From: Minisyncoccota bacterium
GTDB taxonomy: Bacteria > Patescibacteriota > Minisyncoccia > JBAYJV01
Direction: 5' to 3'
Assembly (NCBI GenBank): GCA_041664925.1
Contig: JBAYJV010000002.1
Span: 264,302 to 328,301, forward strand
DNA length: 64,000 bases
Shown here: positions 26,479-31,308 of the stretch, piece after piece
Numbering within the stretch: the first letter of the stretch is position 1
Layout of the letters: each line of letters begins with the position of its first letter
Notes under the pieces: generated by a model
The model's input: the letters and a program-made list of their open reading frames with translations, nothing else
The model's database searches: none
Told to the model about the DNA's origin: nothing
Program-made: the position numbers and the translations under genes

Positions 26479-26976
26479 ATGGAATCACCAAAATCTGGAG
26501 ACACTTTTGAAAACAAAGAACAGATAAAAGCGGAGACAAAAATTCTCTCAGCGGATGAGTTACTTGAGATAATCTATAAGGGGGATTCACTTCCTCAGGA
26601 TACAAGATTTCTTCCCTTAGAAGATGGTGGTGTCTTTAAGTATTTCTACCCGGGAGAGGTTGCTGGTATTAGTTCTTCGAAAAAGCTTTTTCCAGTTGTA
26701 TGTGAAACAGGCAAGGTGGTCGGTTTATCAGAGCTAGAGCAAGATCCAAAAGATGATCAAAATTTTTGGATAAAGTTTGTTTCTGTTGATCCAGAATATC
26801 AAGGTAAGGGGTATGCATCTGAATTACTTAGACAAATTTTCCAATTTGCGAAAGACAATGGATATGCACTAGAACCATCTTACTACTCCGAACAAGGTTT
26901 AGAAAAACTAAAAAGTGTTATTGAAAAACTTTCCGCAGAAACAGGCGTTAATCTTGTTAATCGTCATAATAGCTAG
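26479..26976 (+). CDS. GNAT family N-acetyltransferase-like protein with shared ME-SP leader
   Basis: Acetyl-CoA binding-like segment VDPEYQGKGYASELL. N-terminus MESPKSGDTFENKEQ resembles the leaders of downstream genes. Confidence 0.6.
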   Translation: MESPKSGDTFENKEQIKAETKILSADELLEIIYKGDSLPQDTRFLPLEDGGVFKYFYPGEVAGISSSKKLFPVVCETGKVVGLSELEQDPKDDQNFWIKFVSVDPEYQGKGYASELLRQIFQFAKDNGYALEPSYYSEQGLEKLKSVIEKLSAETGVNLVNRHNS

Positions 26977-27168
26977 CGACCCACATACATATTTTAGAGT
27001 AAAGAAAAGATATTGGAACATCCCCATGGAGCTTAGATCCTTGGGTACTTAATCCGACTAAACCGCCAGTAGTTTTGAAAAGTGACCGTCAAAATTCCCT
27101 TATTTTGCGCTACATTTCAAAACGGAAAAGTGTTAATATGTAATAATCCTAAAGGGATTCGAACTTGT

Positions 27169-27540
27169 ATGAAAAAAATTTATCGATCATCGAAAACAAT
27201 TACTGCACCACTTTCTGGAGCCTATGAAGTAAATGGCTTGGTTTTTGTTTCCGGACAAATCCACATAGATGCTACAGGCCAGCTGGTTGGCAATAGTATA
27301 GAAGAAAAACTTGGTGCGGTTATTTCAAATGTAAAGAAATTATTAGAGGAAGCTAGTCTTACTTTAGATGATGTTGTTCGAGTTCATCTATATCTGACCG
27401 ATCTAAACCAGCTTCCTGAACTCAATAAGGCATATGTGACTTACTTTAAACATCCGCTTCCCGCTAGAACAGCAGTTGGTGTAAGTACTCTCCCCTTGGG
27501 AGCAAGTTTGGAGATGGATGTAATTGCCACAAGAAACTAG
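27169..27540 (+). CDS. ridA: RidA/YjgF family reactive-intermediate deaminase
   Basis: YjgF signature region (GLVFVSGQ...; C-terminal AVGVSTLPLGASLEMDVIA). Start chosen at MKKIYRSS. Confidence 0.8.
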   Translation: MKKIYRSSKTITAPLSGAYEVNGLVFVSGQIHIDATGQLVGNSIEEKLGAVISNVKKLLEEASLTLDDVVRVHLYLTDLNQLPELNKAYVTYFKHPLPARTAVGVSTLPLGASLEMDVIATRN

Positions 27541-27678
27541 AATGACAAAACCTAAACTCATAAAAAGCGTCCCAGTATTTCAACAGAGCGCCTAGTGGAG
27601 CTTCGTCACGCCACTCTTAACAGATGCTCGTTACTAGGTAACACTACAGAAATAAAAAGTATATTATTAATAAAACCC

Positions 27679-28548
27679 ATGGAAAAGTCACCGGAAAGCG
27701 TCTCCACGGAAAAACAAATGGAAGAGTTTGAAAGAGAAAGACTGGATCTACTAACAGGGATCGAAACAGCCGAATTGGCTTCAAAAGTTTATGAAATTTT
27801 AGGAGCAGAATTGGGTTGTCGTTTAGCCGAACCCAACCTAATCCTACTAATATCCGGCATGAAAGGTCATACCGACATACCTTGGGTTAAATTAGACAAA
27901 GAAAGAATAGAAAAATTAGAACAAGTAAACGCACAGCTCGAGAATCTTGGGCTAAGAATATATTACCCAGAAACACTAGAAGAAGAATCAGAAATTACAA
28001 GCCTTTCCATTGTAAATTTTAAAGGTATTGAAAGAAAATCAAGAATGACCAAAATACCATGTGTTCCGCCTTATGAAAGTATTCTGGGAGATGAGCCGAA
28101 GGAATGGCTTAAGAAACTTACTAATTCATTAAAAGAAGCTCAAGAAGCAGGAAAAATACCCAAAGAAGTTAATGTTGAAATTCTAGCCGAAGGAATCATT
28201 TTTGGATATCCAGATCAGGCAATTCTTGATTATGAAAAATGCCGTCGAGAAGGAAAAATCGACGATGATTTACTAGACGCCGATATTCTTTCTTCTGCCC
28301 CCGAAACCACGGAATACAAAGGGGCAGTTCCTGAATTTTGTTATTACCCAGAACACAAAGACGATCATGAAATAATTGAATATATTACTAAGGCTAGGGA
28401 GATATTGGGAAGTTTTTACCAAACCGACTGGTTCAAAGAATTGTCTCAAGGGCAAGAATTTCAAAAGTCTCGACAAGAATCAATGCAAGTAGAAAGGGAA
28501 GGACTTTTAAAAATGGGTTTTAATATTGAAGATACAGACAAGGGTTGA
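27679..28548 (+). CDS. hypothetical protein with MEKSPE leader (290 aa; track start 27595)
   Basis: ORF. N-terminus MEKSPESVSTEKQ is shared with neighbouring genes. No recognisable domain. Confidence 0.4.
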   Translation: MEKSPESVSTEKQMEEFERERLDLLTGIETAELASKVYEILGAELGCRLAEPNLILLISGMKGHTDIPWVKLDKERIEKLEQVNAQLENLGLRIYYPETLEEESEITSLSIVNFKGIERKSRMTKIPCVPPYESILGDEPKEWLKKLTNSLKEAQEAGKIPKEVNVEILAEGIIFGYPDQAILDYEKCRREGKIDDDLLDADILSSAPETTEYKGAVPEFCYYPEHKDDHEIIEYITKAREILGSFYQTDWFKELSQGQEFQKSRQESMQVEREGLLKMGFNIEDTDKG

Positions 28549-29870: not shown

Positions 29871-29987
29871 TTTCTCGCCAAACTTGGTATTAATATTTGC
29901 ATCACACGCAATTCTCAATTATTTTGCCGTTCTTTTCGGATTCTTTTCAGATAACGATAAAGCTCCGGTAATTAATAAATTATAAAC

Positions 29988-30866
29988 ATGGAACCATCGC
30001 CAGAAAAATTAGAACCAAATGAAGAACTTGAAAAAAGACAGCAAGAGATCGAAAAAATTCTTGCAAGAAATCTTGAATTTGTTTCAGAGATGCTACGAAT
30101 AATAAATGATCACGTCCAATCAGGAGATGAACCGGGTATTGATTGGAAAGAAATACAAGGTGTTTGGCTTAGAGAGCAAAAACTTATTTCCGATATAATG
30201 AATATGGGAAAAGAAAGCGGAGTTTTGATTGATCCGCAATATTATTTAATCCCCGCTGGACTATCTAAGCGTTTGGGTACAGAACGATTAGGTGCAATTA
30301 AGGAAACTTTGGGAAAGTTTGTTCCTCTTTCAAAAATTAGTAAACATTTAACAGAGATTAATGTCCAAGCCGAAGAGGCTTATTTATCAATGGGATGTGA
30401 TGGTTTTTACCATGACGGCGTAGCAGAAGTACCTAAGCATATAACTTTTGATACTGCTAATATGCCTAGATTTTTTGCGACACTCCTTCACGAGGCTGTT
30501 GGACATCCAATTGAAGATTCAATAAACGCTACAGACGAAGTAACAAGAAACGAAATGTTGAGAAGTTACGAAGTAATAAAGACTGCCGATTCGTTTTTTC
30601 AAGGATCAGTAGGTAGAATATATCCACTTGAAGAACTCAGGGGTCAATTCGGACAATTTGTCGCGGAATTTACTAAACAATACTGTCTGGATAGTGATGA
30701 ATTAAGAAGTTTTATGCAGGAGCTTCCGCCAGAGATTAGGAATGCCTATAATACATTTTACAATTTTCTTAAAGAAGAAATATTCAATGGGCGTGAGTTC
30801 AATAAAAAAGATATTGAATCATTAATGCAAATTGCTGAACAACAGATGTTATTGGGAAAACAGTAG
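29988..30866 (+). CDS. hypothetical protein with HExxH motif (possible metallopeptidase) and MEPSPE leader
   Basis: LLHEAVGHPIED motif. N-terminus MEPSPEKLEPNEE. Confidence 0.4.
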   Translation: MEPSPEKLEPNEELEKRQQEIEKILARNLEFVSEMLRIINDHVQSGDEPGIDWKEIQGVWLREQKLISDIMNMGKESGVLIDPQYYLIPAGLSKRLGTERLGAIKETLGKFVPLSKISKHLTEINVQAEEAYLSMGCDGFYHDGVAEVPKHITFDTANMPRFFATLLHEAVGHPIEDSINATDEVTRNEMLRSYEVIKTADSFFQGSVGRIYPLEELRGQFGQFVAEFTKQYCLDSDELRSFMQELPPEIRNAYNTFYNFLKEEIFNGREFNKKDIESLMQIAEQQMLLGKQ

Positions 30867-30912
30867 ATTTAAACTTTTGTCTTCAATTTACATACTAATA
30901 AATTGAAAAATT

Positions 30913-31308
30913 ATGGAAAAATCGCCAGAAAGATCAAAAACTGAAAACTTTGAGATCTCAGCTTCTAAAATTATAGAGGATGATTATTTTAATGAATATT
31001 TAACTTTATTTCAGTTACTTGTTTATGATAAAGGTGAAAAAAACAGAAAACCAGTCAAGCCAAAGGGTTTTTCTCAGAGATATCCAGATATGAAATTCTA
31101 TAATTCTTCAATTACCGCAACAGAAACAGAAAGACAGCAGATTGAAGAATTAGACAGATTGGCTATTGAAGTAAATCGCTTAATGGATGAATTAACCTTG
31201 AATAGAACCATTTTGCTAGAAAAAATTATAAGAATGTTGGAAATATGCAATAAACCTGATCTGATTGAATTGTGCAAAAAGAAGCTTGAATCAAAAGAAG
31301 GATTCTAA
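30913..31308 (+). CDS. hypothetical protein with MEKSPE leader (131 aa)
   Basis: N-terminus MEKSPERSKTENFE. Nucleotides at and upstream of the start are similar to those of 29988 and 27679. Confidence 0.4.
   Translation: MEKSPERSKTENFEISASKIIEDDYFNEYLTLFQLLVYDKGEKNRKPVKPKGFSQRYPDMKFYNSSITATETERQQIEELDRLAIEVNRLMDELTLNRTILLEKIIRMLEICNKPDLIELCKKKLESKEGF

Follow-up and report, generated by a model that had tools for sequence, protein, structure and literature searches.

Several bacterial gene families keep a conserved 5′ end through duplication and gene conversion, among them the vsp/vlp genes of Mycoplasma, the opa genes of Neisseria, and the hop/hom genes of Helicobacter. A related arrangement is described here for a 64-kb stretch of a Minisyncoccota genome (assembly GCA_041664925.1, contig JBAYJV010000002.1, positions 264,302–328,301 of the forward strand; hereafter 'the window', with each gene named after its start position therein). 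Judged from its sequence, a start-region module of about 15 codons, possibly with some 15 nucleotides (nt) of upstream DNA and hence around 45–55 nt in all, is common by descent to two genes of the window, 29988 and 30913. As in the vsp/vlp, opa, and hop/hom families, a short promoter-proximal DNA segment encoding the N terminus is shared by neighbours and exists in variants that suggest repeated exchange. In those families, however, the conserved part codes for a signal peptide or lipobox, the gene bodies are paralogous or repetitive, and copy numbers are high, whereas here the segment encodes an acidic, hydrophilic tail, the bodies have unrelated folds, and there are only two or three copies.

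The surroundings of the module are likewise of a known kind. Flexible genomic islands next to tRNA genes, including defence islands, resemble this locus in their conserved backbone, cargo turnover, gene remnants, chimeric open reading frames (ORFs), and tRNA neighbour; the cargo of a related contig includes GmrSD and a HicA-type toxin–antitoxin pair. The locus is not a classical integrative element, as neither an integrase nor a repeat of the tRNA 3′ end was found here; the shift in GC content is confined to the first 2 kb. The module is a small, real feature of two, perhaps three, unrelated genes, and not a five-gene leader family; nothing here points to a new secretion system.

An earlier, sequence-only reading of this DNA had seen more in it: five consecutive genes with a common leader, suggestive of a polymorphic family of effectors or cargo proteins exported by a dedicated route. 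Polymorphic toxins (LXG, Rhs, CdiA, MIX, and PAAR) do show the same clustering of genes with a similar N terminus and different C-terminal enzymatic bodies. Their N-terminal region is, however, a folded domain of at least 100 residues, whereas the segment shared here covers 6–15 residues (at most 15 codons), is predicted to be coil or of low confidence, and thus lacks the folded trafficking domain of such toxins. The locus also differs in that homologues of its bodies are solitary, with other N-termini, in other genomes. Pfam and NCBIfam profiles, run on 10 island proteins, gave no match to secretion, chaperone, or immunity functions. With three carriers only and variable N-termini among homologues, the proposal of an exported family is not supported. 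A resemblance to PEST-like or disordered effector N-termini and to the unstructured signals of type III secretion systems (T3SS) is also apparent, as the tails here are acidic, have a high content of Pro, Glu, Ser, and Thr, are predicted to be disordered, and in several cases contain S-P-E-K/R; this resemblance is compositional only, with no known eukaryotic host and no T3SS.

The analysis took in the window, with a gene list of 68, and about 120 kb of related Paceibacterota loci. Among the latter, contig L011 represents a sister lineage, L010 carries an 89% relative of gene 27679, and L163 and L164 are independent assemblies of a further relative. The window DNA was found again in three independent assemblies at 99.995%–100% identity, and hence the feature is not an assembly artefact; at NCBI, identical copies of window proteins carry the name 'hypothetical protein' and belong to a metagenome-assembled genome of a 'Candidatus Paceibacterota bacterium' (WC242_04420/04430/04435).

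The leader ME[K/P]SPE is truly shared by three genes only: 27679 (MEKSPES), 29988 (MEPSPEK), and 30913 (MEKSPER). Genes 26479 (MESPKS) and 28665 (GTG start, MENFEM), which had been counted as carriers, have only Met-Glu and hydrophilicity in common with these three. The row of five, although correctly placed on the DNA, is also not consecutive: a RidA gene separates 26479 from 27679 and, by N-terminal statistics, has a basic N terminus (MKKIYR) and no leader. At the DNA level, copy 1 of the module consists of TAATAAATT at −15 to −7 followed by ATGGAACCATCGCCAGAAAAATTAGAACCAAATGAAGAACTTGAA (MEPSPEKLEPNEELE) at the start of 29988, and copy 2 of TAATAAATT at −17 to −9 followed by ATGGAAAAATCGCCAGAAAGATCAAAAACTGAAAACTTTGAG (MEKSPERSKTENFE) at the start of 30913. 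With a spacing of 925 nt, this pair is the top direct repeat of the 9.5-kb block, and when the start regions (−40 to +45) of the window genes were compared in all 2278 pairs, it came second. The pairs 28665/30913 and 27679/30913 fall within the top 0.9% and the top 2%, respectively, whereas the remaining seven pairs of the five genes are unremarkable.

The comparison with L011 carries the case for homology. The orthologue of 30913 on that contig (P0026) starts MEKSPEKLEPNENFE / MEKSPEKLEPNE (DNA C-ATGGAAAAATCGCCAGAAAAATTAGAACCAAATGAA), and its start is identical to that of the window's 29988 at 38 of 40 nt, with both differences in a single codon (CCA versus AAA). The bodies of 29988 and 30913 gave no match to each other in blastp, blastn, or tblastn searches, whatever the frame; such near-identity on non-homologous bodies means that the leader is a shared DNA module rather than a coincidence. 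The rare serine codon TCG (9% usage) is also common to 29988, 30913, and the L011 copy. The nucleotide-level similarity that had been noted is true DNA homology for 29988 and 30913; 27679 matches 30913 at 17 of 20 nt. The three-way leader match was tested conservatively, on simulated sets of nine tails drawn from a position-specific background that the N-termini of the same families and their homologues supplied. It had a probability of about 1.5e-4, with a triple sharing four of five positions in 0.015% of the sets; it is not a chance match. Elsewhere, ME[K/P]SPE was found on none of the other 65 window genes and nowhere in the approximately 120 kb of related loci, and scans of Joint Genome Institute (JGI) metagenomes and viral contigs turned up no further gene with the exact module, the only JGI match at a start codon being L011 itself.

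The variants of the module are distributed across both bodies. The paralogous leader pair (window 29988 versus L011 30913) shows 0 synonymous differences in 12 codons, against a synonymous divergence (dS) of 0.5–0.7 for the orthologous bodies, which suggests that the exchange was recent or that the nucleotides themselves are constrained. The orthologous leaders, those of 30913 in the window and on L011, by contrast differ by a 3-nt indel and several substitutions. The form containing KLEPNE is found on the window's 29988 and on the L011 30913, and the form RSK..N.FE on the window's 30913 and on a distant member of the 29988 family, P0004 (49% identity to 29988), whose start, MTEKEPTRSKENDFE, is nearer to the leader of the window's 30913 than to that of its 29988. 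The presence of both variants on both bodies is the pattern expected from a partial duplication followed by gene conversion.

The start regions themselves are essentially unstructured, with minimum free energies of −2 to −6 kcal/mol and folding z-scores of about 0. A Shine–Dalgarno (SD)-like motif lies within 20 nt of the start in 5 of the 68 window genes, and initiation of translation in this genome is evidently largely SD-independent. An AT-rich TAATAAA-like motif occurs in 11 of the 68, and the upstream taataaatt that had been listed among the shared features is thus not specific to these genes. The leader peptides are, as had been noted, hydrophilic and unlike a Sec signal: residues 2–16 of the five genes have a net charge of −1 to −4 and a mean Kyte–Doolittle hydropathy of −1.4 to −2.0, which does not fit the positively charged n-region and hydrophobic h-region of 7–15 residues that mark Sec, Tat, and lipoprotein signals.

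The third carrier is a less certain case. Gene 27679 starts MEKSPESVSTEK, and all three differences in its 17/20-nt match to 30913 are synonymous. Seventeen homologues of its product were aligned, and the ratio of non-synonymous to synonymous divergence (dN/dS) is 0.15; no Pfam, NCBIfam, or PDB sequence match was obtained. Homologues at 55%–66% identity mostly start MEKEKFYSQ, MEEEKFYSQ, or MEKSKFYSQ; since distant homologues start MEK(E/S), this beginning is ancestral to the family, and the window lineage has added no more than 'PES…'. On L010, the 89% relative reads ATG AAG TCA CCG GAA AGC (MKSPES; protein start MKSPESVS) and lacks Glu-2. On this sequence comparison, the extra match of 27679 may be either a short conversion tract or a convergence. 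One member of the family, P0020, is 487 residues long and has a C-terminal extension that by eye repeats a GYPDQ-like motif (…GFPQTSIEAFE…), which hints that the domain of this family can be duplicated in tandem. Gene 26479, in turn, is a backbone gene of the island and not a true carrier of the leader: it matches PF00583 (Acetyltransf_1) at 45.9 bits against a cutoff of 20.7, as a GNAT acetyltransferase, and its L011 orthologue (87% amino acid identity, dN/dS 0.09) starts MESLKS, without the proline.

That the bodies behind these starts are unrelated had been recognised from the sequence and is borne out by a Pfam match for the GNAT protein, a model and a fold search for a clan GH-A-like TIM barrel in 28665, and the predicted zincin fold of the HExxH protein 29988. 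The AlphaFold2 (AF2) model of 28665 has a predicted local distance difference test (pLDDT) score of 91, apart from residues 1–18, which are of low confidence (pLDDT <50) and predicted to be disordered. Its best Foldseek matches are GH39 xylosidases and PslG (E 3e-08), and across 27 homologues E231 (within GNE) is invariant and E364 (within GE) nearly so. The predicted fold is that of a GH39-like glycoside hydrolase of clan GH-A, a (beta/alpha)8 barrel in which the two glutamates would follow strands 4 and 7, going by the motifs. A relative has ATG in place of the GTG start of the window gene, and the N-terminal tails of homologues are hydrophilic and mutually unrelated (MKNLENL, MGESETS, MSDQNDG, MDKDPSK, and MEREPKH). 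A close homologue is frameshifted into ORFs of 160 and 219 residues in two independent assemblies (L163, 410–1614; L164, 380–1584), and window ORF 29002–29175 is the matching alternative frame; the split gene is either a pseudogene or the result of a programmed or recurrent error.

The model of 29988 has a putative HExxH-containing zincin fold, like that of anthrax lethal factor or Pro-Pro endopeptidases, preceded by an N-terminal helical hairpin; residues 1–9 are predicted to be coil, and only residues 1–4 fall below pLDDT 50. The family numbers seven members including the window protein, the six homologues sharing 46%–52% identity with it and mostly starting MEKEP or MEKIE. A second case of an adjacent pair with MEK starts was noticed on L169, a Paceibacterota contig on which a gene for a 109-residue protein starting MEKQNPFEN (93–422) precedes the closest 29988 homologue (627–1508, starting MEKIESKK). 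Genes 28665 and 29988 agree with GH39/PslG and with M34 (anthrax-lethal-factor-like) or Pro-Pro-endopeptidase zincins, respectively, in predicted fold and in the GNE and GE glutamates or the HExxH motif; sequence identity is, however, 12%–15%, no Pfam model scores above threshold, and, unlike those known relatives, both families carry long N-terminal helical additions. Gene 30913 has one homologue only, P0026, at 83% identity (2 hits in 5.8 billion proteins), and its dN/dS of 0.20 marks it as a real coding gene; all testable island genes, with dN/dS of 0.09–0.20, are under purifying selection and hence real.

The sequence-only reading had itself named a result that would count against a leader family, namely orthologues without the leader, dispersed in conserved contexts, and this is what was found. 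Homologues of 27679, 28665, and 29988 are solitary, non-syntenic, and mostly in housekeeping surroundings, with variable N-termini, and none of the other island families co-occurs at the homologue loci examined. Thus, a 27679 homologue sits between the genes for an H+-PPase and trigger factor, a 28665 homologue between a Mur-ligase operon and HMG-CoA synthase, and 29988 homologues between tRNA_edit and ScpA, between GIY-YIG and DUF5652, or next to TspO, where the neighbours' N-termini are ordinary.

The block that houses these genes in the window begins, as had been stated, directly after a tRNA-Ser(GGA) gene, and by blastn positions 105–705 of L011 correspond to 26413–27008 of the window, the similarity starting at the 3′ end of the tRNA (26413). 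Four backbone genes are common to both (the GNAT gene, 30913, 34127, and 34710; 66%–87% amino acid and 71%–85% nucleotide identity). Between the GNAT gene and 30913, the window has RidA, 27679, 28665, and 29988, whereas L011 has ORFs of 174, 82, 118, 83, and 71 residues together with genes for a GmrSD-type nuclease, an Rce1-like CPBP protease, and a DUF7387/HicA pair. L011 also lacks the four genes that separate 30913 from 34127 in the window, and the gene between 34127 and 34710 codes for a PQ-loop protein in the window and for a GDSL lipase in L011. A backbone that is kept while all intervening genes differ is the comparative mark of a flexible genomic island. Unevenness was also seen along the backbone itself, with dS between the window and L011 of 0.5–0.7 for the GNAT gene and 30913 and 1.5–1.8 for 34127 and 34710, which suggests recombination between lineages within the island.

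Traces of past rearrangement are present as well. Positions 29870–29954 are 80% identical over 85 nt to L011 4372–4456, which lies inside an intact PF02517 gene (3861–4481). The DUF3750 gene 31330 matches PF12570 over residues 24–153, while residues 154–191 (nt 31789–31902) are a fragment of an XRE-type helix-turn-helix (HTH) protein with, by tblastn, 54% identity over 44 residues to an HTH_3 gene of L163/L164, where that gene stands directly upstream of the frameshifted 28665 homologue; the window ORF therefore looks chimeric. Machinery for such changes was not detected: the 10 island proteins contain no integrase or recombinase domain in Pfam or NCBIfam, and the repeat scan gave no attC-like or further repeat families. 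The 3′ end of the tRNA-Ser is present once in the 64 kb, with three mismatches allowed, which is not what a tRNA-integrated element would leave, and with no recombinase and the single leader pair as the only notable repeat, the block does not qualify as an integron or site-specific cassette array. Against about 35% for the genome, GC content is raised at 26–28 kb (0.38–0.39) only; the raised value that had been ascribed to the whole block does not extend to 28–31 kb, which at 0.34–0.35 is like the rest of the window.

Acidic, strongly hydrophilic N-termini (net charge ≤ −1 and Kyte–Doolittle ≤ −1.3 over residues 2–16) are not limited to the module. They occur in 9 of the 68 window genes, all at 26479–33798 or at 39932, and five of these nine proteins have SP[E/D] within their first 25 residues, out of 13 such occurrences in the whole gene list; most island proteins have short, disordered, acidic N-terminal tails. 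Neither 32771 nor 33798 has a Pfam match; Pro, Glu, Ser, and Thr abound in their acidic tails (…ETKSPDQ… and …NSPEKEKEP…). Long N-termini of this composition were noted in the genes at 32771–34115 and in 39932–40801 (MKFEEPPQPNPTENPELQETKSPDQ, MKTSETLPNSPEKEKEP, and MNHEKEPQLDVNTDPE), two of them containing SP[E/D].

Our preferred reading, to which we assign a probability of roughly 0.55, is that the start-region module was duplicated or gene-converted between adjacent genes of a recombination-prone island and that its spread is incidental. The block 3′ of tRNA-Ser(GGA) would be a flexible, recombination-prone accessory region that collects unrelated, lineage-variable genes, and the orphan 30913 would have acquired, or arisen on, the start region of the zincin family, members of which elsewhere begin MEKEP or MTEKEP. 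This direction of transfer is the one we infer because the zincin family, with seven members, is the older of the two, 30913 having a single homologue. An initial partial duplication would have been followed by gene conversion between the two adjacent copies. Most plausibly, the module would supply a working, unstructured translation start in an SD-poor genome together with a disordered tail that is neutral in function, and it probably does not act as a targeting signal. Several points weigh against this account. Duplication alone does not explain nine clustered acidic tails or the SP[ED] in five of them; over the first seven codons, 27679 and 30913 show three synonymous and zero non-synonymous differences, which, with tiny numbers, hints at selection on the peptide MEKSPE; the role in expression is a proposal, and the folding z-scores of the start regions are no different from those of shuffled sequences; and the direction and mechanism of exchange cannot be fixed from two lineages.

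Recombination at the conserved 5′ end of a strain-variable block, the other suggestion of the sequence-only reading, survives in part, as the module is shared and the content of the island differs in the relative; a dedicated system for it is another matter. If bodies were shuffled by homologous recombination between repeated leaders, much as phase- or antigen-variable gene families use their conserved 5′ ends, one would point to the two direct repeats, which are spaced 925 nt and enclose a single gene body with its spacer, to a right junction of the L011-divergent segment at most about 14 nt from the start of 30913, to cargo that varies between close relatives, and to the occurrence of both leader variants on both bodies. 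There are, however, only two certain copies of the repeat, and most of the variable genes are leaderless: in the window this holds for RidA, DUF3750, and the ceramidase-family gene, and on L011 for GmrSD, the HicA pair, and the GDSL lipase. Given also a block with neither a recombinase nor further repeat families, and a JGI scan whose start-codon match was L011 only, we hold dedicated cassette exchange to be unlikely. Pure composition or chance, that is, hydrophilic N-termini rich in Glu, Lys, Ser, and Pro in an AT-rich genome, is the best account of 26479 and 28665, which have just Met-Glu in common with the others in a setting where Glu makes up 17% of tail residues, and the MEK(E/S) start already present in the 27679 family and the frequency of the upstream TAATAAA-like motif fit it too. 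As an explanation of the similarity as such it is nevertheless very improbable: it is ruled out for 29988 and 30913 by the 38/40-nt identity between non-homologous genes of two genomes, and the low probability of the triple match and the shared rare TCG codon speak against it further.

Two functional explanations can be set beside the incidental spread of a duplicated start. The leader might be an N-terminal targeting or secretion tag that sends host-directed effectors of an episymbiotic member of the candidate phyla radiation (CPR) through a non-Sec route. Disordered N-termini are typical of some secretion signals, and here nine neighbouring genes have acidic disordered tails, none has a Sec signal, the leader peptide is kept at the amino acid level despite synonymous changes between 27679 and 30913, and the modelled GH39/PslG-like and anthrax-lethal-factor-like folds would make plausible extracellular or host-acting enzymes. 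We nonetheless rate the tag as improbable: the motif is restricted to three genes and missing from the other 65 and from the related loci, the N-termini of homologues elsewhere are not conserved (MEKEKFYSQ, MEKEPK, MKNLENL, and MGESETS), even the 89% relative of 27679 lacks E2, and members of the families occur one by one in varied surroundings, mostly among housekeeping genes. The scanned island proteins include no secretion apparatus or chaperone, and GNAT and RidA are ordinary cytoplasmic enzymes. It is similarly improbable that the conserved nucleotides form a cis-regulatory site over the start codon, bound by a repressor, an RNA-binding protein, or a small RNA in a small regulon. The unchanged synonymous sites in 12 codons, set against the dS of the bodies, and the extent of the module from −15 to +45 would suit such a site, but no RNA structure is predicted, no regulator gene is linked to it in the window, there would be only two or three targets, and 27679 differs at three wobble positions within the core. 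Bolder still, and in our estimate very unlikely, is a reading in which ME(K/P)SPE(K/R) and the Pro/Glu/Ser/Thr-rich tails would be a lineage-specific tag, either a signal for export or sorting or an S-P-x-K/R phospho- or PEST-type degron recognised by the host. The tag would sit on a small and rapidly reshuffled set of effectors of an episymbiont, among them a PslG-like glycosidase, a lethal-factor-like protease, and orphans, with the 5′ module doubling as a handle for recombination by which new cargo is taken up.

The features of the island are listed below. The RidA gene matches PF01042 at E 1e-28, and the ceramidase-family gene, absent from L011, matches PF05875 at 69.3 bits against a cutoff of 32.5.

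Features of the island and its borders, with positions in the window.
Feature	Position	Strand	Basis and remarks
tRNA-Ser(GGA)	26331..26416	+	ARAGORN, Rfam; left edge of variable block
GNAT acetyltransferase, 165 aa	26479..26976	+	Pfam PF00583
RidA/L-PSP family gene	27169..27540	+	Pfam PF01042, TIGR00004
289-aa protein, Paceibacterota/Parcubacteria family	27679..28548	+	17 homologues aligned
401-aa protein, predicted GH39-like clan GH-A TIM barrel	28665..29870	+	AF2, Foldseek
Rce1-like (CPBP) gene, 3′ remnant, non-coding	29870..29954	+	Comparison with L011
Start-region module, copy 1	29973..30032	+	Alignment to L011, direct repeat, pair ranking
292-aa HExxH putative zincin	29988..30866	+	Predicted anthrax-lethal-factor / Pro-Pro-endopeptidase-like fold
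Start-region module, copy 2	30896..30954	+	Alignment, direct repeat, pair ranking
131-aa lineage-restricted orphan	30913..31308	+	Single homologue
DUF3750 protein, apparently chimeric ORF	31330..31908	+	Pfam PF12570, tblastn
Ceramidase-family membrane protein	31913..32605	+	Pfam PF05875
Two cargo genes, 327 aa (32771) and 105 aa (33798)	32771..34115	+	Acidic tails; both absent from L011
Right-hand backbone genes 34127 and 34710	34127..35300	+	blastn and tblastn against L011; small membrane proteins from 34127 onward

Two further observations concern other parts of the window. An intergenic repeat of about 65–140 nt, rich in TTCGAA/TTTCGA, is present at no fewer than three sites (14693–14831, 21976–22114, and 23958–24023; 79%–83% identity, one copy inverted), upstream of genes 14809, 22113, and 24037, and could be a terminator-like sequence or a miniature inverted-repeat transposable element (MITE)-like one. 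To the right of the island, positions 35300–36415 (about 1.1 kb) reach 43% GC, the maximum of the window, and hold two overlapping, unconvincing ORFs on opposite strands; there was no Rfam match, the best being a sub-threshold small RNA (E 0.57), and the segment may represent a decayed gene or one for an RNA not yet described.

Only if the leader were a tag after all would it have a bearing on the routes by which Patescibacteria pass proteins to their hosts. If the incidental spread of a duplicated start region is the right account, the locus is a small, clear case in which an orphan gene of an ultra-small CPR genome gained a functional start from the first 15 or so codons of a neighbour, and in which a mosaic accessory island formed without classical mobile-element machinery, which would be useful in annotating CPR genes listed as 'hypothetical'. 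The region also draws attention to two poorly characterised CPR enzyme families, GH39/PslG-like hydrolases and lethal-factor-like zincins, whose targets might be the envelopes of host cells.

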